This document shows, piece after piece, positions 2,725-52,792 of a stretch of DNA of 64,000 nt (position 1 is the first letter of the stretch; each line of letters begins with the position of its first letter). Made by a program: the position numbers and the translations under genes. Below the pieces are notes generated by a model. The model made no database searches. It saw only the letters and a list, made by a program, of their open reading frames with translations, and was not told the DNA's origin. Source of the stretch: Caldisericia bacterium (GTDB lineage: Bacteria; Caldisericota; Caldisericia; JAAYUI01); contig JAGNLA010000002.1 in the NCBI GenBank assembly GCA_017999835.1, forward strand, positions 99,635 to 163,634, in the 5' to 3' direction.

Positions 2725-3786
2725 ATGAGAAAACTTGCTTTTTCCTTGGCAGCCATGGTGCTGCTGGTTTCGTCGTGCGGGAAACCCAAAACAGAGTCTG
2801 TTCACCAGAAACTTTTATCCATGTACCCACAGTACATCGTGACCAAGGCTTTCCAGACCAACAACAACCTGTTCATCTACAGCTTTGACGTAAAAGCCAT
2901 GAAGGAAAAGCAGCAGATAGCATCGGATTCTCCACAAAAATCCGGCCACGAACTTGCGTTGGTTACAGCTTGGGACTTCTCTAAAGACGGAGAATTCAAG
3001 TGCGAAAACCCATCGGCATTTGAAGGGTTCTCATCCTGCCTGTATTATGACATTCAGGTTTTCACACCTGTGCTCGACTATTCAGATTACATGAAGAAAA
3101 ACGGCGCCATCTCCGAACAGGCAGACAATGGCTTTGTCTATTCCATAAAAACAAAAGATGCCAAAGAAAAACCAGTCGTGACAAAATCTTCTGCAAACAA
3201 ACAGATAGTTGTCTGCACCAGATCATCAAAACAACCTTCCCAAAACGCAGCAACCATGATTGTTTCAGGCGAAGACAAACCAATAACCGAGTATGAATCA
3301 GTTCAGACCTGCCTTCGTGAGCTTGAAGGCTATCCTGCCATTATTATAGGTTTCCTCACTGAATCCTTTGCGGTCAAGTCTGACTACAAGGCAATTGTCA
3401 GCCCGGCAAAGTCACCCACGCAAATCATTGGCATGCAGGAAGTTTTTAAGCGCTGGGGCAGAAACGAATTTGTCTCCAACGCAGCTTTTGGCAGCAAGTG
3501 GGCAAACGGCGTAGAGACCGTAAAAGCTGTGCTTGTTTATCAAAACCAGGAAAAGGCTCAGGAGGATTTCGAAACGCTGTCAAAAGACATCACTCAGATC
3601 CCGTCATTTCTCACCGGTGACTCCTGGTACAAGCGGATGAACATGACAACGCCACAACTTGACATCAACGGTTCGGTTGTGACAGTTGAGTTTGACATGG
3701 ATGCAAAAACAGACAGCTTCCAATTTCCGCTGCTGATGAGAAACATAGAAAAAACCGGTGACTGGGGGTGGCTATGGCTAAAGTAA
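2725..3786 (+). CDS. Hypothetical lipoprotein.
   Basis: Signal peptide with lipobox 'VSSCG'. No recognisable domain. Confidence 0.5.
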   Translation: MRKLAFSLAAMVLLVSSCGKPKTESVHQKLLSMYPQYIVTKAFQTNNNLFIYSFDVKAMKEKQQIASDSPQKSGHELALVTAWDFSKDGEFKCENPSAFEGFSSCLYYDIQVFTPVLDYSDYMKKNGAISEQADNGFVYSIKTKDAKEKPVVTKSSANKQIVVCTRSSKQPSQNAATMIVSGEDKPITEYESVQTCLRELEGYPAIIIGFLTESFAVKSDYKAIVSPAKSPTQIIGMQEVFKRWGRNEFVSNAAFGSKWANGVETVKAVLVYQNQEKAQEDFETLSKDITQIPSFLTGDSWYKRMNMTTPQLDINGSVVTVEFDMDAKTDSFQFPLLMRNIEKTGDWGWLWLK

Positions 3787-4970
3787 GACTGGTTGCGCTT
3801 GCACTTATCGTTACCCTTGCTGGATGCGGAAAATCAGAACCTCTGCCAAGGACAGCTTTTCAGAAGGCTCTTGCCAGAATGCCTGCAATGATAATGGGTC
3901 TTACGACTCGACCGTTGAAGATGAAAGGTTTTGTGTTCAACAACATCGAATACACCAGAGATGTTCGAGGCTTGGTTCTTCAAGCCATCGACAAGGAAGA
4001 GTATAGGCTCCACTGGCTGCTTGGAATGGGAAACAACATCGACTCAAGCGTCAGCAAGGTTCTGCCGCTTGGCAAGTGGGATCACACCCAGATGATGAAC
4101 CCAACAACATGGAAGTGGAACATCTTCGATGTGTCAAACGACCACGAGGTTATATGCTCAACAGCCGACATGGACGAGTTCATCGACTGGATGAACAGGC
4201 ACAACTTCCAGATCATAAACAGACAGTATGCCACGGTTATGCAAAGCACAGGCAGGCACGTCGATTCTGACGTGTTTGGCTCAGGTGTGGTCATCGGCCC
4301 TGACGGCGCGGTGTTCATCGAACGCCAGATACCTTCAGACAACTCCCTTGAGCCGGCTTTCAGGCTCTACACCGGCGAAGGCGAGTCCCTGATGTCGATT
4401 CCGGAGATTTACGAAGTGACCTCTAAACTGCCTGAAAACGCCTTCACATCGATGGTTCTCAAGCTTGAGTCGTCCGTTTCAAAGCACAACCAGCTCTCCC
4501 AGGAATATTGGCACGGTATCCCGATCGGATCACCGCTTGACCCTGAACAGACCATTATTTATCAAGGTTTTGGCAGACCCAGCACTCTCACCTGGATAGG
4601 TGTTGCCCACACCACCAAAAACGGCAGGCACGGTCTGCAGTTTGAACTGCTCTACACCTCAGAGGACGAGGCAAAAAAAGACATAACAAAGCTGACAGAG
4701 GCAATTACGCAAGCCCAGGGGCGTTTCACAAAAAAAGCCTGGTGGACTCAGGACATGCGCCTGCTCGAACCAGAGATAAAGCAAGACGGCAAGTTCATCT
4801 CCATCTGGTCTGACTTTGACATGCCACCGCAAACACGTGAAAAAATCGAAAAAAACGACATGACCTACAAGGAAGCTGAAAGCCTCTGGATCGACGACGT
4901 GCCAGCGCTTGTCGACTTCCTCTACAAGCTCGAGAGGCACGACTACGGCCCATTCTGGCAGAAGGAATAA
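3768..4970 (+). CDS. Hypothetical lipoprotein. Its last 70 nt are duplicated at 44767..44836.
   Basis: Signal peptide with lipobox 'LAGCG'. Overlaps the upstream gene by 19 nt. Confidence 0.5.
   Translation: MAMAKVRLVALALIVTLAGCGKSEPLPRTAFQKALARMPAMIMGLTTRPLKMKGFVFNNIEYTRDVRGLVLQAIDKEEYRLHWLLGMGNNIDSSVSKVLPLGKWDHTQMMNPTTWKWNIFDVSNDHEVICSTADMDEFIDWMNRHNFQIINRQYATVMQSTGRHVDSDVFGSGVVIGPDGAVFIERQIPSDNSLEPAFRLYTGEGESLMSIPEIYEVTSKLPENAFTSMVLKLESSVSKHNQLSQEYWHGIPIGSPLDPEQTIIYQGFGRPSTLTWIGVAHTTKNGRHGLQFELLYTSEDEAKKDITKLTEAITQAQGRFTKKAWWTQDMRLLEPEIKQDGKFISIWSDFDMPPQTREKIEKNDMTYKEAESLWIDDVPALVDFLYKLERHDYGPFWQKE
4891..4960 (+). repeat. Copy 1 of a 70-nt direct repeat (the 3' end of CDS 3768..4970). Copy 2 is at 44767..44836.
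   Basis: 68/70 identity with sharp boundaries. Both differences are synonymous in the copy-1 reading frame. Confidence 0.9.
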
Positions 4971-9470: not shown

Positions 9471-9551
9471 CCATCTTCTCCCTCTGGGAGAAGGATTTCA
9501 GCCACTCAGCCACAATGAAATCGTGTGGCTTTGCCACCGATTTCTAGAAAA
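9471..9551 (+). repeat. Copy A of an ~80-nt structured intergenic repeat.
   Basis: Aligns with 9733..9814. Hairpin 1 is cttctccc-tct-gggagaag (9475..9493). Hairpin 2 is gccaca-N9-tgtggc (9509..9529). Confidence 0.7.
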
Positions 9552-9683: not shown

Positions 9684-9732
9684 AGCAATTATCGGCGGAG
9701 CCGTTATAAACTCCCTCATCCGGTACTTCGTA

Positions 9733-9814
9733 CCACCTTCTCCCAGAGGGAGAAGGATACCAGTTACTCAGCCACAACGAAATCGTGTGGCTTTGCCACC
9801 GATTTCTATAAAAA
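9733..9814 (+). repeat. Copy B of the ~80-nt structured intergenic repeat.
   Basis: The stems match copy A. The hairpin-1 loop differs (agag vs tct) while pairing is kept. Confidence 0.7.
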
Positions 9815-27800: not shown

Positions 27801-27941
27801 AGTGACATCAATGCTGGCTTGCGTACCAGTCTCGCTCATCATTGCCAATGCCTTGGTCGTCAGACTCAATGCCTGAGAGTCGTGTTGCGGAATCATCTGC
27901 AATAAAAGCATGGCGCATATAAGCGGAATCAGTTTTCTCAT
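24894..27941 (-). CDS. Large secreted protein (1015 aa) with Ig/Fn3-like repeats and two C-terminal CAO-N domains.
   Basis: Signal peptide. C-terminal 'GKTMVPFRFIAESLKC' and 'NGTTFVPVRFVADAFQAETTW' CAO-N repeats. Confidence 0.5.
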   Translation of the reverse strand: MRKLIPLICAMLLLQMIPQHDSQALSLTTKALAMMSETGTQASIDVTLPVEPIGSPKFTADIKSEEKIVWDSGINADFPVDVDKVYISHDVQYINVRITLNAKLEDISGDPFISIAMDTDLNPTTGMPKLYQRSYNMGGEDFFARFSTAYGDQKFVIDRWDQSSSDTVETGGLANAKASGKEIKFSIPRLAIGDPCKLDFKVVARTYQTVEPDLSPEHIIYDLTGTTAVSGWKVEKIDTKRYLVTSPVINQTGIEHVNLVWDNIVLPITRYAVNAATNPDAVVWSNQPQVGKHLFMTRVEVFEDDENLKFVFNFANSLKGMGDCDLKIWAMLDTDGKPNVGFEGIKFGDNYEDYIMEVATESRAVRTKLYTASKGMGYNQPSLNDGTLDFEKGICQMTVKKNRIGSPDKIRAKFACGAFKAVEADWDCSTKNELPGKLMYLQYQTLYSEPARGYPLDIRKVECISDTANLYMRITVSNLDKGSVTVWVDQDANPLTGIPKTAGNPAGIDNTIELTKTLGFVYRFNPDGTKTKTGDFLGIRYGDGRLSFPVPLKLLANPKTIRFHVTASDGSAKVAHTLWYLQYGQDEQQSCNENLDVTAAVENGSVKLSWKTKVENPLGWYVYKRDNDETYNRITNTPVTEASFVDNAVEWGKYYQYKVMTICSDGGKSELSNSAGIYVKSDKPQAKIQIDKTILDFGTRRQTKNICDGFTVKNLGPGAVDLAVTTESPSLSATVESLHVEEGQSKRVNVCILENLQPGSWQSSVTVATKELAVVVPVKVDVQASNIADRVVNNLKAVPGAQSLMITWEKPAYNVEQATGYKVDIEETYMLKVMSKTSKTLDASTTSLKLDNLDFETIYTITVTPYYGKTLALPSTVQAQPLAPNISIIMKVGSKEAIVDGKAISISGTPFIDSKTGKTMVPFRFIAESLKCTVAYEARTKMITIKRGWKSVVLVVGSPEAVVSGMKVQVSPPPVVKNGTTFVPVRFVADAFQAETTWNASTKQVGIYFPYGYRP

Positions 27942-28924: not shown

Positions 28925-29479
28925 ATGCCAACAAGAGAAGAAGCTTATCAGCTTGTGACATCCAAGATTGCAAACAAAAATCTTGTCAAGCACATGCTCG
29001 CGCTCGAAGCGATCATGAGGGAGCTTGCGCCAATGTTTGACGGTGACCCCGAGGTCTGGGGACTTGCCGGTCTTGTCCATGACATCGACTATATGGAAAC
29101 CGAAAAAGACCCTTACAATCACGCGCTTTTAGGCGCAAAAATGCTTTCCGAGTTGGGTTACGCGCCTGATTTAGTCAAGGCTGTTGCAGCCCACAACCCG
29201 GAAAATGGCACGAAAATAGAATCAAAATTTGACCTTGCCCTTCACGTTGGCGATCCCCTCACAGGCCTCATCGTTGCCTGCGCGCTCATCCATCCAGCAA
29301 AAAAACTCGAAACAATAGATGTAGATTTTGTGATGAATCGTTTCGGCGAAAAACGTTTTGCAGCAGGCGCTAACCACGACCAGATTGCACGTTGCGCGGA
29401 ACTTGGCCTCGAACTGCCACAGTTTATTGACATCGGGCTTCGAGCCATGAAGAAAATCTCAAAGGAACTTGGCCTATAA
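28925..29479 (+). CDS. HD-domain phosphohydrolase.
   Basis: 'GLAGLVHDIDY' contains the His-Asp doublet. 184 aa. RBS aggag. Its stop overlaps the next start (TAATG). Confidence 0.65.
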   Translation: MPTREEAYQLVTSKIANKNLVKHMLALEAIMRELAPMFDGDPEVWGLAGLVHDIDYMETEKDPYNHALLGAKMLSELGYAPDLVKAVAAHNPENGTKIESKFDLALHVGDPLTGLIVACALIHPAKKLETIDVDFVMNRFGEKRFAAGANHDQIARCAELGLELPQFIDIGLRAMKKISKELGL

Positions 29480-30921
29480 TGTCGGCAACGACAAGGCTGG
29501 TTCTCCTCACCCACACTAACGAACCCCAGCGAATCTGCACGGCAGCGGCAAGATTGTCATCATTGCCAGGTTCGCCAACTCAGATTCTCGATGAAACACC
29601 CGAGGGTGGCTATCCAGATTTTATCAGGCGAATTTTGTCGATGGGTCACCATTCAATCATGGAGCATGCCAACTTCACCATCGCCTTTGAAAATGTATCG
29701 GTGTTTGTGGAGCAGTTTGTCATCGGTTTCAGACTTGCCTCGTTTACAGTCAAATCCAGGCGTTATGTGTCACATGCTGACGCGGGCTACATCGTTCCCC
29801 AGATGTCAGCAGACGAAGGCTCAAACCTTTTTGGTGGGGACGACAAACCATATGTCGGACCAGAGTTTTACGGACCACTCTCTCAAAGATACCTCCACTA
29901 CTGCGAGGGGCTGTTTCTTGCCTACAAAAAACTCGTCGAAATCGGCATCTCCGTAGAGGATGCCAGGTTCGTTCTCCCATACTCTTTCAAGTCAAACTTC
30001 ATTGCCACCGGCAACGCAAGGTCATGGATTCACATGATTTATTGCGCCTTGCACGGCAAAGGCAAGAGGTACCAGGAAGTAAACTGGATAGGCGTCAAGC
30101 TGCTTGAGATGCTAACAAAAGAAGCACCGGCACTGTTTTCAAAAATCGACACCATAGAAAACGGTTCCTACCAAAAAGAGGAGCAGCTGGCAGCTATTGT
30201 TGCCAAACAAAAGCTTGAAAAGTCATTCGATCATCAAAAAGTCGAAATTCTCGAGCACACACCCGACCCTGACAGGGTTGTAGCCAAAACGGCCCTTGTG
30301 GGAGCTTCGCGCGCTCCTTCCGATGAAGTGGACAAGATTTTGACCAAGGACATGATTGCCGACACAGTCAGGATAGTCGATTCAAGCCTCCACCCAAGAG
30401 AATTTGAGCAAGCCGTTTTCACGTTCAGACTATCAGGCATGAGCCTGCCAACGCTTACCCATGTGACACGTCACAGGATGCAAGGTCTCATCGTTCCAAG
30501 CTTTATGGAGGCAGGACTCTCACCAAATATTGTCATACCGCCTGCTGTTGAAAAGAAACCTGAAGCATTGGCTATTTTCAACTCTGCCCTAACCCAGCAG
30601 AAGAGCTTCTGGGAAGCCATGGACAGGTTCGACGTTCCTCCTGAAAACAGGGTTTACGCTTATCTTTCAGGGCAGACAATCGATGTGATAACAACAATGA
30701 ACGTCCGCGAGCTTTTACATTTCTTCCAGCTTCGAACCTGCAACAGGGCTCAGTGGGAGATAAGGGATTACGCAAGTGAGATGCTCGCCCAGGTGAAAAA
30801 AGTCGCCCCCAATTGCTTTAAACGCGCTGGCGCCAGCTGCTTCCGTGACGGCAAGTGTCGCGAGGGCAGGATGACATGCGGCAGGGAACGTGAAATGAAG
30901 GAATACTTCGGAAAGCTGTAA
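29479..30921 (+). CDS. Fused tandem ThyX-like protein (two flavin-dependent thymidylate synthase domains).
   Basis: The N-terminal half has 'GHHSIMEH...GFRLASFTVKSRRY...EDARFVLPYSF..NARSW'. The C-terminal half has 'ILEHTPDP...TRHRMQGLIVPS' (canonical RHR-x7-S) and 'NVRELLHFFQLRTCNRAQWEIRDYA'. Confidence 0.7.
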   Translation: MSATTRLVLLTHTNEPQRICTAAARLSSLPGSPTQILDETPEGGYPDFIRRILSMGHHSIMEHANFTIAFENVSVFVEQFVIGFRLASFTVKSRRYVSHADAGYIVPQMSADEGSNLFGGDDKPYVGPEFYGPLSQRYLHYCEGLFLAYKKLVEIGISVEDARFVLPYSFKSNFIATGNARSWIHMIYCALHGKGKRYQEVNWIGVKLLEMLTKEAPALFSKIDTIENGSYQKEEQLAAIVAKQKLEKSFDHQKVEILEHTPDPDRVVAKTALVGASRAPSDEVDKILTKDMIADTVRIVDSSLHPREFEQAVFTFRLSGMSLPTLTHVTRHRMQGLIVPSFMEAGLSPNIVIPPAVEKKPEALAIFNSALTQQKSFWEAMDRFDVPPENRVYAYLSGQTIDVITTMNVRELLHFFQLRTCNRAQWEIRDYASEMLAQVKKVAPNCFKRAGASCFRDGKCREGRMTCGREREMKEYFGKL

Positions 30922-42195: not shown

Positions 42196-44733
42196 TTGAA
42201 CAAGATTGTTATGCTTGTGTGCGCCTTGCTGGCCATTCCAGCATTTGGCATTCATAATTCGTCATCAGAGGACTTGCCCAAACCCTGGCCGCAGTTTGCC
42301 TGTGACATTGCGCACTCGTCTGTGGCTTCGGACAAATGGGACTACAAAACGTACAAAACACCGGCATGGATACTGACAATGAAAGGCACAGACGGATTTT
42401 CTCGAAATCCAGTCATTGACAAAGGCTTGATGGTTATCGCCGATTCACAGCGGATTTATTGCATGGACGTGATCTCCGGTAAACAGAAATGGTCATCGGA
42501 CTTGGTCAACGGATGTGGCGGATCCTGCGCAATAATAGGCGATCGCGTGCTTGTTCCGACGTCAGGGAACATTCTTTCAATCGATTTGGCCACCGGCAAC
42601 GTTCAGGCTTCCCTGAGCATCGGATCAGCAACATCGCCAAGTTTTTATACAGATGACTACAGCAATACAGGCTTCTACTTCGGAGTCCCTGGGAAACCAG
42701 GCTACGCTGCCAAATACGACATAGATTCAGGCAGGAAAAGATGGGAGATGCAGACTGAATGGGGTTGCCCGGGTGCAATCGCCGTCAACACTGAGGAAGG
42801 CATCGCCGGTGTAACATCCCACTACAGTATCTATGCTCTCGATGAGATGTACGGCTCAATGGAAAGCCAGATTGAGACAGGAACCCAGTCTTTTGCAGCA
42901 ACGTCAGCCATCGACAGGTTCTGCGTCTACACCATGTCAGGCGGTGAAACATATTTGCTGCCAAAACTTTACGAAAAGTGGAACCCGATGATCATCGACT
43001 GTGGAGGATTCACCTTCTGGCCACCTGCCCAGTTTGGCAAAACACTCATCCAGGGCAATCAGGATGGCAGGCTGGTCAACTTCGATTTAACAGGCAAGGT
43101 CATCTGGGATGTCCAAATGCCAGGGCCGGTGACAAACGGTTCAACGGTCATGGACGGAACCGTGCTTGTGCCTGTCGGTGGCTCGGACAAAACAAAGTCA
43201 GGTGTCTACATCATGGATGCCAAAACCGGCTCGCAGATAGATTTCATCAACATTCAAGCCGAGTATGTCTTCCAGCCAGTCGTTGCCTGGCAGAGGATGT
43301 TTGTCGAGTATGGAAAGAACGAAAAATATACCAGCCGCTGGCTTGCCTGTTACGGCAAAAAACCAAGACCAGCCGACCAGGAACCAAAGCTGACAATCAA
43401 AGATTTTGTCATCACGACACAAGTGGCGTGGATGGGCGAAACACTCAAACAGGCAACACTGACAAACTCAGGCAAGGTCAAGCTCGACCTGCTGCTGACC
43501 GGCGACACGCTCATCACTCCAACCGTTGAAACAATGACGCTTGCGCCAGGTGCATCGGAAACACTGAGGATAAAAATTGTCGGCAAAAACAAACCCGGCA
43601 AATACACGCAAAAGATAAACTGCCACATCACCGATCCCGATTATGGCGACCAGTCGCTTGGCTACATAACGGCAATCATCACCATCACTGAGGCTGCTCC
43701 ACCTGAACCGCAGGATCAGCCGCCAAACCCGCCAAGAGAGCTGCAGGCAAGGGTGGTTTACGACTACATTCAACTGGAGTGGAAGCAACCTGACAAAGGA
43801 ACAGAACCTCTTGGGTACAACGTTTTCAGAACCGTCGGCACCGATGCGTTTCCAAAAGACCCGATAAACAAGTCCAAAATCACCGACCTGACATACGCCG
43901 ACAAGGAGGTCATTGCCGGGCTGCAATACACCTACAAAGTCGTTGCCCTTGGCAAGGCTGGATTGGTGTCCGACCCATCAAACACCGCAACAGCCGAAAT
44001 CCCAATAAAGCTGCTGGCTGTCAAGAACCTGAAAGCAGAAAAACAAGGCGAGGGCGTGCTTTTGACCTGGGAATCCGAGCAGCCTGTGACTTTTGTAATC
44101 GAGCGCAACGGCGACCAGGTAGGCATGACCTCAAATCTTCTGTTTTCTGACACAAACCCTCCCCAGGAAAAACTTATCTACAAGGTGTTTCCGAAGAAAG
44201 ACAACCAGTTTGGCCCTGAAGCTTTTGTCATCATTGACCTTTCTCCCCAAAAGCCACCTGACCCAGACCCAAATCCGGAACCCGAGCCTGAACCGCAACC
44301 AGAGCCGACGCCTGAAGAAAAAGAAGTCAAAATCGTTGTCGAGTTCACGGTTGGCAAGGAGATCGCCACAGTCAACGGAACGGCCAAGTTTTCAGGCGCA
44401 ATCCCGTTTATCAGTAACGGCAGGATGATGGTTCCATTCAGGTTTTTGGGTGAATCCATCGGCGCAAAGGTCAGCTACACATCAGACCCAAAAACCGGCA
44501 AAGTGTTGACTGTTACTTATGAGCTTGCCGGCAAAACCGTCCAGCTGGTCATGGGCTCAAAGACTGCAATTGTTGGCGAAGACAGCGTTGAGCTTGACGC
44601 CCCTCCACAGATTTCAGGTGGCAAAACCTATGTTCCTCTCAGGTTTGTCACGGCAGCGCTGGGTGGGACCGTGGACTGGAACGCTACAGAAAAGAAAGCA
44701 ACGATAACATATATCTCGAAGGTGAAGCCGTAG
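42196..44733 (+). CDS. Secreted PQQ-like beta-propeller / Fn3 protein with a Pro/Glu/Asp-rich linker and a C-terminal CAO-N domain.
   Basis: TTG start with RBS AAGGAGG. Linker 'PDPDPNPEPEPEPQPEPTPEE'. C-terminal 'NGRMMVPFRFLGESIGAKVSY...GGKTYVPLRFVTAALGGTVDW'. Confidence 0.55.
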   Translation: MNKIVMLVCALLAIPAFGIHNSSSEDLPKPWPQFACDIAHSSVASDKWDYKTYKTPAWILTMKGTDGFSRNPVIDKGLMVIADSQRIYCMDVISGKQKWSSDLVNGCGGSCAIIGDRVLVPTSGNILSIDLATGNVQASLSIGSATSPSFYTDDYSNTGFYFGVPGKPGYAAKYDIDSGRKRWEMQTEWGCPGAIAVNTEEGIAGVTSHYSIYALDEMYGSMESQIETGTQSFAATSAIDRFCVYTMSGGETYLLPKLYEKWNPMIIDCGGFTFWPPAQFGKTLIQGNQDGRLVNFDLTGKVIWDVQMPGPVTNGSTVMDGTVLVPVGGSDKTKSGVYIMDAKTGSQIDFINIQAEYVFQPVVAWQRMFVEYGKNEKYTSRWLACYGKKPRPADQEPKLTIKDFVITTQVAWMGETLKQATLTNSGKVKLDLLLTGDTLITPTVETMTLAPGASETLRIKIVGKNKPGKYTQKINCHITDPDYGDQSLGYITAIITITEAAPPEPQDQPPNPPRELQARVVYDYIQLEWKQPDKGTEPLGYNVFRTVGTDAFPKDPINKSKITDLTYADKEVIAGLQYTYKVVALGKAGLVSDPSNTATAEIPIKLLAVKNLKAEKQGEGVLLTWESEQPVTFVIERNGDQVGMTSNLLFSDTNPPQEKLIYKVFPKKDNQFGPEAFVIIDLSPQKPPDPDPNPEPEPEPQPEPTPEEKEVKIVVEFTVGKEIATVNGTAKFSGAIPFISNGRMMVPFRFLGESIGAKVSYTSDPKTGKVLTVTYELAGKTVQLVMGSKTAIVGEDSVELDAPPQISGGKTYVPLRFVTAALGGTVDWNATEKKATITYISKVKP

Positions 44734-44766
44734 AAGAACTGAAAAATTCTTCCTCTCGACGACGTG

Positions 44767-44836
44767 CCGGCGCTTGTGGACTTCCTCTACAAGCTCGAGA
44801 GGCACGACTACGGCCCATTCTGGCAAAAAAATATTC
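44767..44836 (+). repeat. Copy 2 of the 70-nt direct repeat, a non-coding fragment identical to the 3' end of CDS 3768..4970.
   Basis: 68/70 identity to 4891..4960. No start codon in frame. Sits between the stop of the propeller gene and the 3' end of the SIR2-like gene. Confidence 0.9.
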
Positions 44837-44865
44837 TGTTGTTCCAACAAACGAAATATGGTTAT

Positions 44866-46713
44866 TTACGATATAGGAAATGGAGGCGAAACAGCATACC
44901 AGTTCTGAGCTGATGTTTTTACTTGAATCGTATAATAACACGATGTTTGAGGATTTTTGATTCCAGAACTTTTATCAAATCTAATATCAAATTTTTCACA
45001 TTCTTTTATTGTCATTGGCAAAGTAATTGTTAATAAATTGCCATTAACCGTAGGTTTTATTTTTATCTTATACCATTTACTTATATTTCTAAAACCAATT
45101 CTTTTTAATAAACATTGTAGAAAGTTATGCTTGCTAACTGAGATCGTATTATTATCAATATTTTCTGGAATTGTAAAACCGATTGGGAATGCAATAGTAA
45201 TTGTATCTATATCATTAACCAATTTGATTTTATTATTCACTAAACGAATCTCTATGTCATCACTCATGCCAAGTTTATTATTCATAAATATAATAGGATT
45301 ATTTCTAATAAAATGAATTGTGTCTCTAATCTCGTATGGCTGAGATTTAAGCTTGTCCTCAGCGTTGTTAACTGCAATGCTTAAGTGATATAATCCACTT
45401 TTTGATGTGTTGATTAGGCGACAATTCGAATTGAAAACAAGACATAGTTTTCCTGATTGTTCTATCTTAAATCTATTTTGGAAAAAAATTCTAATTTTAT
45501 TATTATTTATGTATTCTATATTTTGCGCATGTTGAACTCCATAACCATAATAACTCCCAGGATACAAGATAATATTATCAGCAACTACCCTTTTGAAAAA
45601 TCTCAAATTTTTTAATAGAGATTTTTTTCTACCATGTTGAAAATCTATCTCAATCAATTTCAAATATTTATTTTTACTTTTACAGACATAGTTAAAAGCA
45701 ATAGCATATTCAGCACCAGATTGTAATGTCGCATTATGATTTACAGTAACATTTAATTCAGAAATAAAGATTTTTGGTATTTTTTGCTCATAATCGTCAT
45801 AGGAGACTTGAGCATTATCAGTTGATGAAAATTTCTCTGACTTTAATCTTTCATAGCTTTTCCATAATTGTTTAAAAAAATCATTACCATCTTGGACAAT
45901 TGGCTTAAAATCCAGCGAATCTAATAATTCTTTTGATTCTTCTTTAAATTCATACTTATCGATCCAATAATTGGTATATGCTTTATTATTAGTATATGAT
46001 TGTTTTATTATCTCTCTCAATCTAGAATCATATTTTGCTGACCAACCACAGATTATTACACCAAAATTATCGAAGATATCTGTCAATAATGAGTCGACAC
46101 TGGAATCAAAATTAGAAAGTTCTTGACTAGTATTTTTTAGTTCAGTATCCAGATAATCACCACATATTTTTATAAGAGATAAGTTTCTATTGGGCCAATC
46201 AGCAATAAAAGGTTTTTGATCAATAAAGCTATTCTTATCTATTATTCTTGAATAACCGATATCCTCTAGATGCAATTCCATTAATCTATCAAAGTTTGTT
46301 GTAATGATAATTTTTATTACATCTTCTTTTACTAATTTTACAATTACTTTATGTGCATTATCATCTTTGGAATTATATACGGTATCCATCTTGTGGAATG
46401 GTTCAAAGATTTCTTTTAAGTATAATCTTTTATCAGAATTTTTATTAAAATACCAGTCAATGATATCTGAATAATCAATATTTGTTTTACCTGTTTCAGT
46501 ATAATACCATTTCTCATAATCATTAAGATTCGAAAACTTTGATGAATTCATGCTGGCATACTTCTTTTTAATCAAATCCATTGATATCGAGTATGCCGTT
46601 GGTATTCCAGCAGATGTTGATAAACCAGAGCCAATTAATAGCACATATCCCCATTTATTGTTATCAAGCATACTTGCAATATTAGATATGGTTGAATCAT
46701 TTGAAGGTGACAT
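44866..46713 (-). CDS. SIR2-like (SIR2_2 / DHS-like NAD-binding) domain protein with an unrecognised ~360-aa C-terminal domain.
   Basis: N-terminal 'GSGLSTSAGIPT' (sirtuin GAGIS..GIP-like) and 'TTNFDRLME' (TTNYD-like). No Cys4 zinc ribbon. The gene is very AT-rich compared with its neighbours. Confidence 0.7.
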   Translation of the reverse strand: MSPSNDSTISNIASMLDNNKWGYVLLIGSGLSTSAGIPTAYSISMDLIKKKYASMNSSKFSNLNDYEKWYYTETGKTNIDYSDIIDWYFNKNSDKRLYLKEIFEPFHKMDTVYNSKDDNAHKVIVKLVKEDVIKIIITTNFDRLMELHLEDIGYSRIIDKNSFIDQKPFIADWPNRNLSLIKICGDYLDTELKNTSQELSNFDSSVDSLLTDIFDNFGVIICGWSAKYDSRLREIIKQSYTNNKAYTNYWIDKYEFKEESKELLDSLDFKPIVQDGNDFFKQLWKSYERLKSEKFSSTDNAQVSYDDYEQKIPKIFISELNVTVNHNATLQSGAEYAIAFNYVCKSKNKYLKLIEIDFQHGRKKSLLKNLRFFKRVVADNIILYPGSYYGYGVQHAQNIEYINNNKIRIFFQNRFKIEQSGKLCLVFNSNCRLINTSKSGLYHLSIAVNNAEDKLKSQPYEIRDTIHFIRNNPIIFMNNKLGMSDDIEIRLVNNKIKLVNDIDTITIAFPIGFTIPENIDNNTISVSKHNFLQCLLKRIGFRNISKWYKIKIKPTVNGNLLTITLPMTIKECEKFDIRFDKSSGIKNPQTSCYYTIQVKTSAQNWYAVSPPFPIS

Positions 46714-46804
46714 AATAAGATTATATATACTTTTTCAAGTAATAAAATACATTTATGTATACCATTCTGGAAAAATCCGAACTTTTCCGTTATCCTATCC
46801 CACC

Positions 46805-48445
46805 ATGGAACCAAACACACAAAAACCAAGCCAGCGCGTGGCGATATCGGCAAAGCTTGCCCAGGCGCTGCAAAAGATGGATGTAGAATTCACGCCCGAC
46901 GTCATGCGTCCGGACTCTCCCGACCACGGCGACTGGTCCAGCAATTGCGCCATGGCGCTTGCGCGCCAGATGAAGAAGGCGCCGAGGATGGTTGCCGAGG
47001 AAATAATAAAAAACCTTGACCAGACGATGTTTGAGAAGGTTGAGATTGTTGGCCCGGGGTTCATGAACTTTTTCCTCAAGCCAGAGGTTGTCACTAAATT
47101 TGTAAAGGACGCCTGCGACGAAGGTTTCGGCAGGTCGGACTTTGGCAAGGGCACAAAGGTCATGGTGGAGTTTGTCTCGGCAAACCCAACGGGGCCGGTA
47201 ACGGTTGCAAACGGTCGCGGCGCACCTCTGGGCGACTCGATTTCCAGATTGCTTGAGTGGGTCGGTTACAGCGTTCACCGTGAGTTCTACGTCAATGACC
47301 GAGGCTCCAAAGTCACAAACCTTGGACGCTCGCTTGAACAAAGGTACAGACAGGCGCGAGGTTTGGATTGGTCGATGCCTGAAGAAGGGTATCCAGGAGA
47401 ATATCTTCTCGATATCGCAAAGGAAATGGTTCCTGACTTTGGCAACACCCCTTTTGACATGCCAGACTCCGAAAGAGTAGAGTTTTTTGGCAGGCAGGCT
47501 GTCACCAGAATGATCGCCTGGCAGGAAAAGGTATTTGAAAAATTCGGCATAAAGTTTGACCTTTGGTTCTCAGAGGCCAAGATGGCGGCAGAAGGCAAAA
47601 TCGAACAAACTCTTGAAAGGCTGAAAAAAACCGGCTGCATCTACGAAGCCGAGGGTGCAACATGGTTGCGTTCAACGGACTTTGGCGATGACAAGGATTT
47701 TGTCGTGGTCAAATCAACAGGTGACGCCACCTACACGCTTGGCGACATAGCCTACCACATTGGCAAGTTTGACCGTGGCTTTGACCTTGCAATCGACCTG
47801 ATGGGTGCCGACCACCATGGCCACGTTGGTCCGATGCACGCAGGTCTTCAGGCTTTGGGCATCGACCACAACAGGCTTGAGTTTGTCCTCTACCAGCTGG
47901 TGCACCTTTTCAGAGGTGAGGTTCAGGTCAAGATGAGCAAGTCCAGCGGCGAGTTTGTCACGCTCGAGGAGCTGCTTGATGAAGTTGGCGTGGATGCTGC
48001 CAGGTATTTCTACCTCATGCGTTCCAGCGACACCCATCTGAACTTTGACCTTGACCTGGCAAAGTCACAAACAATGGACAATCCGGTCTATTATGTACAG
48101 TATGCCCATGTCAGGTGCTGCGCGATCATGGATGATGAAAGGGCAAAAGACATCGATTTGTCCAAAGCATCGCCGTTTGAGCACCAGCTTGAGAAGGCGC
48201 TTGCCATGGAGCTTGTGACTTTCCCGGACGAGGTGAAGGCGTCAGCGCTTGCCAGAACCCCTCACAGAATTGCCGCATATGCGGAGAAAATTGCGTCAGC
48301 ATTCCATTCCTTCTACTACGAGTGCCACGTGCTAAACGAAGAGCCGGCCATAAAAGCCAGACGCATGCTGCTTGTGAAAGCCACAAGAAACGTCCTGAAA
48401 GGCTGTCTTGACATTTTGGGAGTGAGCGCGCCAAACAGGATGTAA
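46805..48445 (+). CDS. argS: Arginyl-tRNA synthetase with a non-canonical HIGH region.
   Basis: 'VEFVSANPTGPVTVANGRGAPLGD', 'YVNDRGSKV' and 'KMSKS' are present. 547 aa from the ATG at 46805. The upstream ORF extension was rejected because it overlaps the SIR2 gene start. Confidence 0.85.
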   Translation: MEPNTQKPSQRVAISAKLAQALQKMDVEFTPDVMRPDSPDHGDWSSNCAMALARQMKKAPRMVAEEIIKNLDQTMFEKVEIVGPGFMNFFLKPEVVTKFVKDACDEGFGRSDFGKGTKVMVEFVSANPTGPVTVANGRGAPLGDSISRLLEWVGYSVHREFYVNDRGSKVTNLGRSLEQRYRQARGLDWSMPEEGYPGEYLLDIAKEMVPDFGNTPFDMPDSERVEFFGRQAVTRMIAWQEKVFEKFGIKFDLWFSEAKMAAEGKIEQTLERLKKTGCIYEAEGATWLRSTDFGDDKDFVVVKSTGDATYTLGDIAYHIGKFDRGFDLAIDLMGADHHGHVGPMHAGLQALGIDHNRLEFVLYQLVHLFRGEVQVKMSKSSGEFVTLEELLDEVGVDAARYFYLMRSSDTHLNFDLDLAKSQTMDNPVYYVQYAHVRCCAIMDDERAKDIDLSKASPFEHQLEKALAMELVTFPDEVKASALARTPHRIAAYAEKIASAFHSFYYECHVLNEEPAIKARRMLLVKATRNVLKGCLDILGVSAPNRM

Positions 48446-48498: not shown

Positions 48499-48586
48499 GT
48501 TATCTATTGCCATTGTCAGTTAAATTAAATACTATCTGGTCATCAATTTGGGAGTCAAGCACCCCACAAAAAAAGGATACAAAGAC

Positions 48587-49615
48587 ATGAACATTGAATT
48601 TAGAAGGCTTGGGTACGACGAGATAATAAACAACTGCTTTGCCCAGTTCAAAGCATTCAACGATGCCTTCAGTAAAGACATTTATCCTGATGAAAACCCG
48701 GACACCGAAGACAGGCTCAAGGAGATAATTCACGAACGTGACTGCGATTTTTACAGGTTCACTGCCTTCGACGGTGACAAGATAGTTGGCTCGATATCCT
48801 CAGGCAAGCTCAAGCCGGAGCATCCAGAATACAGCTCTAGAAAGCATGTCAGCTGGCTTGAAGGTTTTGTCCTTCCACAGTACAGAAGGCGAGGGATTGG
48901 AAAGCAGCTCGTTAGGCAAGCACTCGAAATGGCTTCCCAAAACGGTGTCGAGGTCGTCAAACCCTACACCTATTGCGATGAAGGCTTTGCGTTCATCGAA
49001 AGCCTTGGCGGAAAAGCGGTTTCGGCTCAGTCTGACAGGACACTGGAGCTTGACAAACTCGACTGGTCTCTGGTTGAATCCTGGCTCAAAATCCCTATTG
49101 GAGACCTGAAACTGGAATATTTTTCAGAATTCTCAGATGAGCTTATGGAAAGGCTCATTGATGTTTCATTTGCCTCGACGCAGGAAGTGTCTGCCATGGA
49201 CAGCTGCGAGGTGCCACCAACCCTTGATGGTGAAAGGCATTCGCTGAGGGAATTCTCAGATTACATTAAAAATACTGGTACGAGATACCATTGTCTGCTT
49301 TTGACCGACGAAGCCGGAAACATCCTTGGTTACACTGAAGGAACCATTCCCCCGGAAGACCCTGATGTTTTCAGGCAAGCCATGACAATGGTCTGGAAAC
49401 ACCATCGTGGCAAGGGTTATGGCAAGTTCCTCAAAGCAGCGATGCTCGACTTTATCCGCAAAAACCTGCCAAACATAAAAAAACAGGTGACAGGCAACAA
49501 CGACCTTAATGCCCCGATGCTTGCCATCAACCTAAAGCTGGGCTTCCAGCTTGTCAGGCAGTGGAAGGTCTACAGAGTTGAGGTGGCAAAAGCGCTGGAC
49601 AATCTCAAAATGTAA
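48587..49615 (+). CDS. Double-GNAT acyl-CoA N-acyltransferase. Paralog 1 of 4.
   Basis: 343 aa. The N-terminal half has 'VLPQYRRRGIGKQLV'. The C-terminal half has 'VWKHHRGKGYGKFLKAAML...TGNNDLNAPMLAINLKLGF'. RBS aaaaagga. Confidence 0.7.
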   Translation: MNIEFRRLGYDEIINNCFAQFKAFNDAFSKDIYPDENPDTEDRLKEIIHERDCDFYRFTAFDGDKIVGSISSGKLKPEHPEYSSRKHVSWLEGFVLPQYRRRGIGKQLVRQALEMASQNGVEVVKPYTYCDEGFAFIESLGGKAVSAQSDRTLELDKLDWSLVESWLKIPIGDLKLEYFSEFSDELMERLIDVSFASTQEVSAMDSCEVPPTLDGERHSLREFSDYIKNTGTRYHCLLLTDEAGNILGYTEGTIPPEDPDVFRQAMTMVWKHHRGKGYGKFLKAAMLDFIRKNLPNIKKQVTGNNDLNAPMLAINLKLGFQLVRQWKVYRVEVAKALDNLKM

Positions 49616-49711
49616 ATTCCAAAGCTATTGCCGACAAAAGTTAATTCCAATATCATCCAAAAACAAGAAACACGTGGGAGGTCCACGACCACAGACAAAG
49701 GAAATATTGAT

Positions 49712-50755
49712 ATGAACATAGAAATTAGAAAAGTAGAAAAAGAAGAACTTCTGGGAGATTTGTATCAGACCTACAGAATCCTTGCAATCAGGGACTTTGC
49801 CGACATGTACCCGGAGGAATCTACATTGAATGATGAGATCATCAGAACAAGACTCGAAAACAAAAATTATGATGAAAGCAATTATTTTGCTTTTTTGGAT
49901 GGGCAAATGATTGGCTATTCCGATATTAGCAGACCCAGCAGAAGCAATCCTGCTTATGAACAAAACAAGAACAGAATTGGTTTTTGGGCTTTTATTTTGC
50001 CAGAGTATAGAAAACAGGGGCTAGGTGTAAAGCTACTTACGATGGCACTTGAAGATCCACTGCGTGAGTATATCCAAAGGCTCAGAACTTCAGCGTACAG
50101 CGCCGATGGTCGAAGGTTCGTCGAGTCGCTCGGTGGCAAGGTTGTAGAAAAAAGTTCCACACGAGAGCTTCTTGTCAAAGACATTGACTGGGAGCTGGTA
50201 GAATCATGGAAAAACATGAGTTTCTCTCCAGACAAAAAACCGGTTATAGAGTTTCATAGTAAAATTGACTGGCAAATTGTTGAGCAATTCCTGGACCTGT
50301 CTTTTGAAATAAACCTGGAACTCAGCCAGATGGACAATCGCGAGTTTATTCACACCAGAGAGTCTGAGGAGCATGACTGGAAAGAAATGCTGGAGTACTG
50401 GGGTAAAACTGGCTTTGAAAATGAATGTTTCATTCTGAAAGATTCTGCTGGTTCAACCATTGGCTACACAATGTGCATTTTCTCATCCAGAGATCCAGAC
50501 ACTGTCGGTCAAAGTATGACTGCTGTCTGGAAGCACCTCCGAGGCAACGGTTATGGACAGCTCCTGAAAGCTTTGATGCTTGAAAATATTAGGACAAACC
50601 ATCCGCAGATAGTAAAAATCAACACCAGCAACAACGATCTCAACGACCCAATGGTGGGTATAAACAGAAAGCTTGGGTTTGTAGAAAAAAGTCTCTGGTG
50701 TTCGTATATTGTCGACTACAGTGAGGCAATTGAAAAACTGAGGAGCAAAAAATGA
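49712..50755 (+). CDS. Double-GNAT acyl-CoA N-acyltransferase. Paralog 2 of 4.
   Basis: 'MNIEIRKVEKEELLG', 'ILPEYRKQGLGVKLL', 'VWKHLRGNGYGQLLKALML...TSNNDLNDPMVGINRKLGF'. Confidence 0.7.
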   Translation: MNIEIRKVEKEELLGDLYQTYRILAIRDFADMYPEESTLNDEIIRTRLENKNYDESNYFAFLDGQMIGYSDISRPSRSNPAYEQNKNRIGFWAFILPEYRKQGLGVKLLTMALEDPLREYIQRLRTSAYSADGRRFVESLGGKVVEKSSTRELLVKDIDWELVESWKNMSFSPDKKPVIEFHSKIDWQIVEQFLDLSFEINLELSQMDNREFIHTRESEEHDWKEMLEYWGKTGFENECFILKDSAGSTIGYTMCIFSSRDPDTVGQSMTAVWKHLRGNGYGQLLKALMLENIRTNHPQIVKINTSNNDLNDPMVGINRKLGFVEKSLWCSYIVDYSEAIEKLRSKK

Positions 50756-51783
50756 ACATAGAAATTAGGAAAGTTGACAAGGAAGAGTTGCTGGGTGAAT
50801 ATTTTGACGCATACTGCAAAATTGTCAGACTCCAACGAGCCCAGTTTGCTCCTGACAATCCACCACCATCAAACGAGCGAATCCGAATTGGACTGGAGGA
50901 AGCGAGCGAGGACTGGCAGGTAATACGGTATATGGGATTTGCAGGAATAGATGCAATTGGATTGCTGGAATTTGGTTCTTTGAAACCTGAGTCACCCGAT
51001 TATTCCAAAAACAAGGAGATTGGCTGGCTGGACATTTTTATTGTCGACTCACACCGAAGGCAAGGAATAGGCACGAAATTTGCCAAGCAGGCAATCTTGA
51101 CTTTGAAGGAGTTAGGAGTCACAAAAATAGATGCAGGTTCAGTTTCTCAAAATGGTCAGCGATTTTTGGAACAACTTGGGGCAACTCTTAAATCAAAGTT
51201 TTCTGACAGAAATCTTGATTTGAACACGATGAACTGGAGCATTGCCGATGACTGGCTTGAAATCAGGAACAAGCTGCCAGATAAATGGTCAATTGAGTTT
51301 CATGTCGAGATTTCTGACAATTTCATCGAACAGGTAATTGATGTAAGTCATGACATTGTCTGTGAGTTAAGGGCAATGAGTAGTTACGAGTTTGTATCAA
51401 CACGCGAGTCAGAAATTAAGGACTGGAAAGAATTTGCCAGATGGGTTGAAAAGACTGGCGAAAAATATTCATGTTTCCTCATAAAAGATGATTCCGGCAA
51501 AGTCGTTGGGTACACTGAAGGCGGTTTCCGCAATGACAACCCAGCTCAGTTCCAACAATATGTCACTGGCGTAACAAAATCCAAAAGAGGTTTGGGACTT
51601 GGAAAACTACTCAAGGCGTTGATGCTTGATTATATCAGACGAGAACACCCCGAAGTCCAAAAAATCTCAACCGGCAGCAACGATTTGAACGACCCAATGC
51701 ATGGCATCAATAACATCCTTGGCTTCACACCCGGTGTTACCCGTTCAAACTACCGCATCTTAGTTGAAGAAACCATGAAATAA
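50752..51783 (+). CDS. Double-GNAT acyl-CoA N-acyltransferase. Paralog 3 of 4.
   Basis: 'MNIEIRKVDKEELLG', 'IVDSHRRQGIGTKFA', 'TKSKRGLGLGKLLKALML...TGSNDLNDPMHGINNILGF'. ATGA overlap with paralog 2. Confidence 0.7.
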   Translation: MNIEIRKVDKEELLGEYFDAYCKIVRLQRAQFAPDNPPPSNERIRIGLEEASEDWQVIRYMGFAGIDAIGLLEFGSLKPESPDYSKNKEIGWLDIFIVDSHRRQGIGTKFAKQAILTLKELGVTKIDAGSVSQNGQRFLEQLGATLKSKFSDRNLDLNTMNWSIADDWLEIRNKLPDKWSIEFHVEISDNFIEQVIDVSHDIVCELRAMSSYEFVSTRESEIKDWKEFARWVEKTGEKYSCFLIKDDSGKVVGYTEGGFRNDNPAQFQQYVTGVTKSKRGLGLGKLLKALMLDYIRREHPEVQKISTGSNDLNDPMHGINNILGFTPGVTRSNYRILVEETMK

Positions 51784-51793
51784 TGGAGTAAAG

Positions 51794-52792
51794 ATGAGTC
51801 AGGGAATTTCAATCAGACAAATTGAAAAACATGACCTGCTTGGTGAAAGCCTCAAGGCGTTTCTTGCATTCTTCAAAACCATGAACCTTGAAACATATCC
51901 AGAAGAAAAACCCTGGAGCGACAACCAGATAACCGACATCATAAAACAGAGCAGTGACAAGATGTTTCGGGTGTGCGCTCTTGATGGCGACAAGATGGTT
52001 GCCTATTCATCGCTTGACTGGAGCTTGTGCAAGCCTGGATTTGGCAGGAGTTTCATTAACGTCCTGCCAGATTACAGAAGACAAGGTCTTGGCTCAGATA
52101 TTTTTAGCCAGGTTCTCGGCCATACCCGAAACATCGGTCTTTCAAAACTGATATGCCAGACACATCATCAGTCCGGCGAGGAGTTCATGACCAGCCGGGG
52201 TGGAAAGATTGTTGCCAAAGAGTCCACCCGGACGCTTTTGATGACCAGTGTCGACTGGAGCCTTGTCGACAACTGGATTGCCATAGGGAAAATCCGCAAT
52301 CCATCGCTGAAACTTATCTTTTCAAGGCATGTTGACGACTCGATGATCCCAGGTTTGGCAACAGTCTCGCTTGAGATTGAAAGGGATTTGATGTCTCTAA
52401 ATGCAAATCAAATAGACATTTCTTACGAGTTTGAGGTTGAGGAATGGAAACGAAGGCAAGCTGAAGCGACAAGCCCAAACCAGTCAAGAATATTTCTATT
52501 TGTCCATGACGGCTGTGGCGAGATTGTCGGATACTCCAACGTTTCCATTCAAAACAGCGACCCCACCTTTGCCAGACAAGGCATGACCGCTGTCAAAAAG
52601 GATTGCCGCGGTGCAGGCATAGGAAAGCTCCTCAAGGCAGCCATGCTTCGATTCATCAAGGATAATCATCCTGAAATTGTAAAGGTTTCCACAGGCAACA
52701 ACGACTTGAACGCGCCAATCGTTGCCATCAACGAAAAGCTTGGTTTTACCAAAGGAGTTTGCTGGACAAACTTTGAACTTGAAGTAAGTTAA
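51794..52792 (+). CDS. Double-GNAT acyl-CoA N-acyltransferase. Paralog 4 of 4.
   Basis: 'VLPDYRRQGLGSDIF', 'VKKDCRGAGIGKLLKAAML...TGNNDLNAPIVAINEKLGF'. Confidence 0.7.
   Translation: MSQGISIRQIEKHDLLGESLKAFLAFFKTMNLETYPEEKPWSDNQITDIIKQSSDKMFRVCALDGDKMVAYSSLDWSLCKPGFGRSFINVLPDYRRQGLGSDIFSQVLGHTRNIGLSKLICQTHHQSGEEFMTSRGGKIVAKESTRTLLMTSVDWSLVDNWIAIGKIRNPSLKLIFSRHVDDSMIPGLATVSLEIERDLMSLNANQIDISYEFEVEEWKRRQAEATSPNQSRIFLFVHDGCGEIVGYSNVSIQNSDPTFARQGMTAVKKDCRGAGIGKLLKAAMLRFIKDNHPEIVKVSTGNNDLNAPIVAINEKLGFTKGVCWTNFELEVS

Follow-up and report, generated by a model that had tools for sequence, protein, structure and literature searches.

Antiphage proteins with a SIR2 effector are known in several architectures. 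DSR2 is a single chain of ~1,000 amino acids (aa) in which an N-terminal SIR2 domain, with the catalytic residue H171, is combined with a C-terminal alpha-solenoid sensor, and DSR2 itself senses a phage structural protein. The Sir2-APAZ subunit of SPARSA has an APAZ region and a pAgo partner, ThsA of Thoeris has an alpha/beta SLOG domain that binds cyclic ADP-ribose (ADPR) and is accompanied by ThsB, a TIR protein, and SIR2-HerA is defined by its HerA component. The PDC systems are computational candidates, and PDC-S65 among them is a single gene for a protein of ~585 aa that is widespread in bacteria and archaea. Here a stretch of 64,000 nucleotides (nt) from a Caldisericia bacterium (assembly GCA_017999835.1, contig JAGNLA010000002.1, positions 99,635 to 163,634; the whole of this 64-kb stretch is called the window below) was analysed for the gene of a 615-aa SIR2 protein. 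The protein joins an N-terminal SIR2_2 domain to two C-terminal immunoglobulin-like (Ig-like) beta-sandwich modules (Table 1).

The protein belongs to none of these systems, and with PDC-S65 it has only the SIR2 half in common. Partner genes were sought with Pfam on open reading frames (ORFs) of at least 150 aa at 1-45 kb, with precomputed Pfam assignments at 46.7-56.7 kb, and with PADLOC on the ten neighbours. No TIR, HerA, FtsK-like ATPase, PIWI/pAgo, STAND or other defence gene was found by these searches in the 64-kb window. The original prediction, which had been made from the sequence without database searches, stated that no TIR, HerA, pAgo or STAND partner lies nearby, and this is confirmed by these Pfam and PADLOC results. 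It also stated that the protein does not fit Thoeris, DSR1/2, SIR2-HerA or pAgo-SIR2, and this is borne out, since the defining features of these systems (SLOG or ThsB, length and solenoid, HerA, APAZ or pAgo) are missing here. Thus, unlike ThsA, the protein is without the SLOG domain and the window is without a ThsB (TIR) gene, and unlike SIR2-HerA there is no HerA or FtsK-like ATPase.

Among solved SIR2 proteins, the nearest both in sequence (E = 2e-8) and in fold (1e-14) is the Sir2-APAZ subunit of SPARSA (PDB 8in8, 8jl0, 8y80), but the window protein has neither APAZ nor a pAgo partner, and H186 of SPARSA is replaced by Cys184. DSR2 is similar in its SIR2 fold and in uniting a SIR2 effector, at the N-terminus, with a protein-sensing region at the C-terminus of a single chain, whereas the putative sensor of the window protein is Ig-like, the whole chain has 615 aa, and Cys stands at the His position. 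The likeness to PDC-S65 is closer: the N-terminal 300 aa are 33-40% identical, both are single polypeptides of ~600 aa, and the GSG loop, TTNFD, the K-x-[H/N/C]-G-D-Y strand and the ICGWS motif are common to both. In contrast, the C-terminus of PDC-S65 is helical (profile positions 309-592, which remain unaligned) where the window protein has two Ig-like sandwiches, and PDC-S65 is mostly His-keeping (90/123) and widespread, while the fusion is found in Caldisericia only. The proposal that this is a new SIR2 protein therefore stands for the C-terminal swap and falls for the N-terminal half, which is that of the existing candidate PDC-S65 (E = 1e-71).

The SIR2 domain

Pfam SIR2_2 (PF13289) matches aa 135-271 with 35.6 bits against a gathering cutoff of 24.5. 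The PADLOC model of PDC-S65 is matched far better than any other (E = 1.2e-71), with aa 6-305 aligned to positions 16-308 of the 592 in the profile; the next models are those of short-pAgo-associated SIR2 proteins (E = 2e-26), and the alignments to the Aga_SIR2 models end at aa 253-265 of the window protein, with no APAZ. Models of deacylases are matched below their cutoffs (PF02146, 11.1 vs 24 bits; CobB of NCBIfam, 22 vs 320 bits). No CxxC is present anywhere in the protein, and the zinc ribbon of deacetylases is thus missing. With the GSGLS loop at aa 28-32, TTNFD at aa 138-142, and Pfam above its cutoff, the earlier description of a SIR2_2-type module without a zinc ribbon is upheld.

The 551 homologs obtained by a word-indexed search align, all but two, solely over the N-terminal ~45%. 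These N-terminal-only homologs are 'SIR2 family proteins' of ~585 aa from many bacteria and archaea. The closest solved sequence after that of SPARSA Sir2-APAZ is human FAM118B. In the full-length structure model (mean predicted local distance difference test, pLDDT, 84.6; predicted template modelling score, pTM, 0.53), the SIR2 part is matched by Foldseek best to SPARSA chain 8y80, followed by DSR2, KomC/HAM-SIR2, and ThsA. Judged by sequence and predicted fold, the N-terminal domain is a SIR2_2 domain of the antiphage-sirtuin clade, grouped with antiphage effectors and not with deacylases.

A separate observation concerns PDC-S65 itself. In Clostridium sp. LQ25, the gene of a PDC-S65-type SIR2 protein (P0037) begins 14 nt after the gene of a 1,048-aa TPR protein, and the pair is present in two independent contigs (L023, 4841-9761; L024, 336-5256), in a transposase-rich region. 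Some of the 'single-gene' PDC-S65 members may be two-gene systems.

The catalytic site

The active site was examined by HMMER alignment to the SPARSA chain, with a numbering that reproduces N142, Y168, and H186 of PMC11452484. Asn140 of TTNFD aligns to N142, and Cys184, in the sequence K-I-C-G-D, to H186, the canonical catalytic His. Among 123 family members, TTNFD is kept in 119, and the His position is occupied by His in 90, by Asn in 29, and by Cys in four. These four are the window protein, its near-identical counterpart P0001, P0002 from a related genome, and the fusion protein P0129; Cys is also present in the full-length allele on contig L021, and Asn in the fusion protein P0130. Strict conservation is seen in the Gly-rich loop, in TTNFD, and in the G-D immediately after the substituted residue. 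Because Cys is common to alleles that are 50% identical and to P0129 (30-36% identity), the change from His to Cys is old and maintained.

From these residues, the SIR2 domain is likely to bind NAD+, but fast hydrolysis of NAD+ is not assured, because Cys184 stands at the position of the catalytic His. The label 'NAD-depleting' given to the gene earlier is thus insecure on account of Cys184, which is aligned to the catalytic H186 of SPARSA. His-less sirtuins with activity are known. SirTM sirtuins have Gln at the His position and are robust ADP-ribosyltransferases in which the Asn is still needed (PMC4518038). They resemble the window protein in their sirtuin fold, in being naturally without the His, and in keeping the Asn, but they have a Gln/Arg site, are linked in operons to a macrodomain protein and GcvH-L, and belong to the canonical branch, none of which applies to the window protein.

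The His is replaced by Cys or Asn in about one quarter of the PDC-S65 clade and in every member of the fusion family, which raises the question of whether the canonical base is dispensable in antiphage sirtuins. The loss also affects annotation pipelines in which 'SIR2_2' is equated with 'NADase'.

The C-terminal Ig-like modules

The C-terminal half is modelled as an all-beta, two-domain structure with a pLDDT of 90. The fold of both modules is an Ig-like sandwich of the kind found in YweA/BslA, carbohydrate-binding modules, cohesins, and pilins; the similarity to the BslA/YweA fold is moderate, and the module pair also resembles the two-domain ligand-binding regions of MSCRAMM adhesins. A fold search of BFVD gave generic Ig-like matches only (TM ≤0.32). 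Module B is characterised by the motifs DTITIAFP..IP and IKNP.T...Y.IQVKTS.Q.WYAVSPP. The C-terminus, which had been regarded as unrecognisable, thus consists of two Ig-like sandwiches homologous to a surface-protein repeat (see below), and the suggestion of a ThsA-like protein with a divergent SLOG domain is refuted by the all-beta model.

An exhaustive HMMER search with aa 296-615 against 1.84 billion representatives yielded 89 proteins with module homologs, most of which are giant (up to 4,669 aa). The giants have N-terminal signal peptides, are extracellular, and contain 3-14 tandem copies of the module. Several of them terminate in Cu_amine_oxidN1, as do five secreted proteins of the window, and one is annotated with a type IX secretion system (T9SS) sorting domain. 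Some giants match the whole two-module unit, and their arrays are therefore taken as an A-B super-repeat. The best match to the C-terminus of the window protein is the first of two adjacent giants on L010 (5001-23218; GCA_040961665.1), which are 4,405 aa and more than 2,740 aa long and both end in Cu_amine_oxidN1; this first giant contains 13-16 module copies. DUF2808 (PF10989) is hit at 4e-13 to 8e-6 by P0121, the best-matching giant, and by P0126 and P0128. The link of the window protein to DUF2808 is transitive, as the protein has no direct PF10989 match in Pfam. DUF2808 is uncharacterised, and has been reported in the cyanobacterial exoproteome and as an accessory domain of a few orthocaspases.

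When the C-termini of PDC-S65 proteins (n = 60) were compared with the module alignment, the hhalign probability was 0.04%, and a word-indexed search with the C-terminal alignment returned P0002 alone. At the level of sequence, it is shown by these comparisons that the Ig-like modules replace an unrelated, helical C-terminal domain of the PDC-S65 relatives, and by homology that they were taken over from the repeat that makes up giant secreted surface proteins. Unlike the giants with their signal peptides and extracellular location, the window protein has two copies of the module fused to an enzyme and is predicted to be cytoplasmic, no signal peptide being present in the sequence of its N-terminus.

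The fusion family and its alleles

The fusion architecture is present at four other loci (P0218, P0129, P0130, and a degraded copy on L022), and all fusion loci of known origin are from Caldisericia. Among 87 module-bearing representatives, counted without the window cluster and P0002, a SIR2 domain is found in P0129 and P0130 only. A scan of JGI metagenomes for the fusion gave just another copy of P0130, and a scan of IMG/VR gave nothing. Signal peptides in P0129 and P0130 were flagged by a crude rule and rejected as false positives caused by the LLLGSG strand.

P0130, annotated as 'SIR2 family protein [Caldisericia bacterium]', is found on 22 contigs from anaerobic digesters. Its gene is a low-GC insert (0.33-0.35 vs 0.45-0.5; GC, guanine plus cytosine content) between sbcCD and a 16S rRNA gene. 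On L022 (6794-8501), from the Caldisericia metagenome-assembled genome (MAG) GCA_041391325.1, a P0129-like fusion carries at least five frameshifts, which split it into at least six frame segments; it may be a pseudogene or the product of a poor assembly. It lies between two Cu_amine_oxidN1 genes, and only its last 172 codons have been called as a protein (P0144).

Two further features were seen on L004, from a Caldisericia MAG with P0130. A DUF4917 gene (a SIR2-like family) and a 397-aa gene are located 8 kb upstream (L004, 487-2746), and the 16S rRNA gene directly after the SIR2-Ig gene (L004, 11875-13414) is complete, convergent, and solitary.

In a close relative of the window genome, represented by contigs L021 and L002, a mosaic allele of the SIR2 gene is located at the same site next to argS. 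Compared with this allele, the amino-acid identity of the window protein is 50% in the SIR2 domain, 51% in module A, and 93% in module B. The DNA identity of the 3' segment (97-100%) exceeds that of the backbone (~92%), and the segment was therefore exchanged in the recent past. The L002 allele, on a contig with 1.09x coverage, has an in-frame stop near its start (26-28) where L021, which is 99.8% identical, encodes Tyr, and the apparent truncation of P0002 is attributed to a sequencing error and the end of the contig. The more distant relatives L011 and L012 have another neighbour upstream of argS, and the SIR2 gene is absent from their argS locus.

The gene combines a foreign composition (see below) with variable presence among relatives, replacement of alleles in a constant position, and pseudogenisation in one lineage, a set of traits typical of accessory conflict genes. 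By these signs the gene is evidently accessory, with recombination between close relatives and decay in one lineage.

Composition and flanks of the gene

The window translation is 100% identical to MBP7732497.1 (P0219; 'SIR2 family protein [Caldisericia bacterium]', from a Caldisericia MAG). V608A is the sole difference in P0001, which comes from an independent Logan assembly (contig L001). The ATG at 46713 is supported as the start because homology to P0129, P0130, and PDC-S65 extends to residue 6. Comparison of ArgRS places the window within uncultured Caldisericales, the nearest species representatives having 86-87% ArgRS identity.

The GC content of the gene is 0.278 and that of its third codon positions (GC3) 0.214. 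In the neighbouring genes (argS, an 845-aa gene, and gene X), GC is about 0.5 and GC3 0.58-0.62, so that the AT-richness noted in the original prediction ('roughly half the GC') is correct. The gene and its immediate flanks form a sharp-edged AT-rich block, and the homology of L011 and L012 to the window begins at 46764. The 14-mer that brackets the block, CCATTCTGG[C/A]AAAA, has two occurrences in the 64 kb and was absent from all 100 shuffles. Its right copy is largely native argS leader, ATTCTGG.AAA being kept in L011, L012, and L021.

The description of the gene as solitary and divergent from argS is confirmed, the ATG of argS being 91 nt away. A TATAAT box and the lack of a Shine-Dalgarno sequence, both claimed earlier, are both seen, except that the box (46725-46720, minus strand) is located 6 nt and not 8 nt upstream of the ATG. 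The box has no -35 partner at sigma-70 spacing, and no two-hexamer sigma-70 match is present in 46714..46804. No Shine-Dalgarno sequence is visible at argS either, and its absence at the SIR2 gene therefore carries little weight for the leaderless transcript that had been suggested earlier. A sigma-70 scan gave 21 matches vs 13 expected, none of them at the 5' end of the SIR2 gene, and a terminator scan gave none; these scans are uninformative, because DNA of 27% GC yields promoter-like matches by composition alone. PHROGs gave no match for the window protein, gene X, or the 353-aa gene near gene X. The only Rfam matches in the whole window are three tRNAs, and 44000-47500 has none.

The 73-nt repeat

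The gene had been described as abutting a 70-nt att-like repeat at 44767..44836. The repeat is really 73 nt long (44756-44828) and is the duplicated tail of a core gene, gene X, with no integrase. In L021 and L002 the 73-nt sequence is present in a single copy, as the tail of an intact gene X that is directly convergent with the SIR2 gene, and the order of 353-aa gene, gene X, SIR2 gene, argS, and GNAT genes is contiguous. In the window lineage, gene X and the SIR2 gene are separated by a core block of 39.8 kb (4964-44755), which contains three tRNAs, radical SAM, UDP-glucose dehydrogenase, metK, thyX, GH2, GerM, M14 peptidase, and many surface-protein genes. Since the SIR2 gene is beside argS in both genomes, the difference between them is the 39.8-kb core block with duplication of the gene X tail. 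Logan contig L001 terminates inside the repeat, as expected with two genomic copies. The repeat is thus best identified, by comparison of these contigs, as the scar of a large core-genome rearrangement between close relatives and not as an att site. It serves as a caution that a long direct repeat adjoining an AT-rich gene need not mark integration.

Three other interpretations of the region were considered and rejected. A 39.9-kb integrative element between the 73-nt copies would consist of miaA-adjacent core genes, metK, thyX, tRNAs, GH2, and surface-protein genes, with no integrase or phage genes. Movement of a SIR2 cassette to argS together with 73 nt of its old flank is ruled out by the contiguity of gene X, the SIR2 gene, and argS in L021. 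A supposed SIR2 gene remnant within the AT-rich spacer that follows gene X (4971-5125) amounted to chance short matches only.

Table 1. Coordinates, in the window, of the SIR2/Ig-like fusion gene, its parts, and the repeats around it
Feature	Position	Strand	Remarks
SIR2/Ig-like fusion gene, complete	44866..46713	-	615-aa ORF; stop codon 44866-44868
SIR2_2 NAD-binding Rossmann domain, aa 1-292	45838..46713	-	Pfam, PADLOC, Foldseek
Asn140 codon, conserved catalytic Asn of TTNFD	46294..46296	-	aligned to SPARSA Sir2 N142
Cys184 codon, canonical catalytic His position (K-I-C-G-D)	46162..46164	-	aligned to SPARSA Sir2 H186
Flexible linker, aa 293-314	45772..45837	-	pLDDT <50 for aa 295-309 in full-length model
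Ig-like beta-sandwich module A, aa 315-466	45316..45771	-	
Ig-like beta-sandwich module B, aa 467-615	44869..45315	-	most conserved part of repeat family
Recombinant segment	44869..45304	-	last ~430 nt; 97-100% identical in DNA to L002 allele (sliding identity)
Sharp-edged AT-rich block	44829..46761	.	GC 0.274; gene with 37-nt 3' flank and 48-nt 5' flank
Divergent SIR2 gene/argS intergenic region	46714..46804	.	91 nt; true argS ATG at 46805
14-nt direct repeat, left copy CCATTCTGGCAAAA	44815..44828	+	left edge of AT-rich block; end of gene X tail copy
14-nt direct repeat, right copy CCATTCTGGAAAAA	46762..46775	+	right edge of AT-rich block
Orphan copy of gene X 3' coding end	44756..44828	+	73 nt, 96% identical to 4891-4963
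Original 73-nt copy	4891..4963	+	inside 3' end of gene X (400-aa ORF 3768..4970)

Proposed function and alternative explanations

The reading tentatively preferred here, although its chance is put at somewhat less than even, is that of a one-gene sensor-effector, in which binding of a phage protein by the Ig-like pair would be followed by consumption of NAD+ by the SIR2 domain. The protein would be a cytoplasmic single polypeptide of the antiphage-sirtuin kind, so far found in Caldisericia only, and the Ig-like pair would most likely be its ligand-binding sensor. A phage protein bound to the pair, as the putative trigger, may relieve autoinhibition or drive oligomerisation of the SIR2 domains; the activated domains would then consume NAD+, and the infected cell would be stopped. 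With Cys184 in place of the His and Asn140 retained, the SIR2 domain may hydrolyse NAD+ slowly or transfer ADP-ribose, in contrast to the fast NADase reaction of DSR2 and SPARSA. We infer the defence role, as well as the trigger, the oligomerisation-driven activation, and the reaction catalysed.

In its mode of action the protein would come closest to DSR2 and to the bacterial Schlafen nuclease pSlfn5, in which effector and protein sensor form one chain. In pSlfn5, an experimental precedent for the design, specificity is determined by an Ig-like domain at the C-terminus, which recognises a phage tail-assembly chaperone and is exchangeable among orthologues (PMC13056530). Both pSlfn5 and the window protein are cytoplasmic proteins with an N-terminal effector and a C-terminal Ig-like beta-sandwich, the sensor role being putative in the window protein. 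They differ in that pSlfn5 has a tRNase effector and one Ig-like domain, and the window protein a SIR2 effector and two; no sequence relationship is expected. If active, the window protein would add to the SIR2 defence repertoire a type of sensor made of a tandem Ig-like unit from extracellular giant-protein repeats. It would also extend the design of effector plus Ig-like sensor, demonstrated in 2026 for Schlafen nucleases, to a sirtuin effector in a deep-branching uncultured phylum.

A slim chance is given to a receptor decoy, in which the Ig-like pair would mimic a host surface repeat that is gripped by phage receptor-binding proteins and would be coupled to a His-independent SIR2 chemistry. 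Nascent phage tail or receptor-binding proteins would dock on the mimic in the cytoplasm and so turn on the SIR2 domain, with Cys or Asn in its chemistry. Since the putative sensor is homologous to surface repeats of the host, receptor mimicry is a concrete and testable idea.

Several observations weigh against the sensor-effector reading. The gene is not part of a defence island, its neighbours being argS, GNAT-like genes, and surface-protein genes, none of which matches PADLOC. The earlier suggestion to look for homologs in defence islands has brought little: the contexts of two ordinary PDC-S65 homologs, the two that were sampled, show just a weak association with defence, and P0130 is located outside a defence island. 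The catalytic His is kept by no fusion member, all of which have Cys or Asn instead. N142 and H186 of SPARSA Sir2 are reported to be crucial for NAD+ catalysis (PMC11452484), and FAM118A/B need the equivalent His (H206 in FAM118B; PMC12700824). NAD processing is abolished when this His is mutated in SPARSA, in FAM118, or in DSR2, the structures of which were obtained with the inactive H171A protein. In addition, PDC-S65 is a computational candidate only and is not mentioned in a full-text literature search, the inter-domain arrangement is not confidently predicted (pTM 0.53), and the host is uncultured.

The loss of the His is equally the basis of an unlikely alternative, in which the SIR2 protein has no NAD hydrolase activity and is a target-specific ADP-ribosyltransferase, or a non-catalytic binder of NAD or an ADP-ribose ligand with a scaffolding or regulatory function; such a protein may still act in phage conflict. 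Cys184 and the Cys or Asn of the other fusion members are in its favour, as is the essential nature of the His in the closest characterised relatives. The 29 of 123 PDC-S65-like proteins with Asn indicate that the loss has been tolerated repeatedly in the clade, and SirTM is an example of His-less sirtuins able to act as transferases. The Gln/Arg pair of SirTM is, however, not evident in the window protein, no macrodomain or other eraser gene was found nearby by Pfam among the window ORFs, and the strict retention of the Gly-rich loop, TTNFD, and G-D argues for a working nicotinamide-ribose pocket. It is quite unlikely that the protein is a non-immune cytoplasmic factor, the modules of which pair with nascent surface-protein repeats while, prior to export, the SIR2 domain modifies or inspects these. 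A foreign composition, absence from the argS locus of L011 and L012, the L022 pseudogene, and hypervariable alleles are unlike a housekeeping factor; moreover, no linked surface gene with the module is present in the 64 kb, and the SIR2 clade is one of antiphage effectors and not of deacylases. The homology of the modules to surface-protein repeats agrees with such a factor nonetheless, as do the richness of Caldisericia genomes in secreted Cu_amine_oxidN1 proteins (five in the window), the position of the L022 pseudogene between two Cu_amine_oxidN1 genes, and the location of both the window gene and P0130 outside defence islands.

A very small chance is given to a decaying or inactive relic of a SIR2 defence gene, which would be kept only since the His-to-Cys change is recent. 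The lost His, the at least five frameshifts of the sister copy on L022, and the lack of a promoter match at the 5' end of the gene would be in line with decay, but an ORF of 1,848 nt has remained open in DNA of 27% GC and is 99.8-100% conserved in independent samples. The Cys, common to the 50% identical alleles and to P0129, is hence old and maintained, and the remaining motifs of the pocket are all conserved. Next to no weight is left for a ThsA-like protein with a divergent SLOG domain or for the cargo of an integrative element with a 70-nt att repeat, both of which are refuted for the window. They were suggested by the ThsA-like SIR2_2 N-terminus and by the long direct repeat adjoining the gene; the C-terminus, however, is all-beta and Ig-like and not an alpha/beta SLOG domain, and there is no TIR gene in the 64 kb. 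As for the repeat, it is the duplicated coding tail of gene X and a single sequence in L021, where gene X, the SIR2 gene, and argS follow one another without interruption, and the 39.8-kb interval contains metK, thyX, tRNAs, and surface-protein genes but no integrase.

Other features of the window

Directly downstream of argS, at 48548-52792, there are four tandem paralogs of 332-375 aa with weak double-GNAT signatures. These paralogs have the repeat families D1 and D2 in common, and at least one of them is present in L021. Genes of large secreted proteins are unusually dense in the window (11051-13183, 13667-14386, 14533-17148, 24894-27941, and 42196-44733), and their products have beta-propellers of the PQQ/ACSF4 type together with fn3/PKD-like domains and end in Cu_amine_oxidN1.

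An intergenic direct repeat of 82 nt is present at 9470-9551 and 9732-9813, the two copies being 88% identical and 262 nt apart. Each copy contains two hairpin-forming stretches, CTTCTCCC..GGGAGAAG and GCCACA..TGTGGC, with no match in Rfam. The thyX gene at 29479-30921 encodes a protein of 480 aa with two Thy1 (ThyX) stretches, apparently an internally duplicated tandem ThyX.

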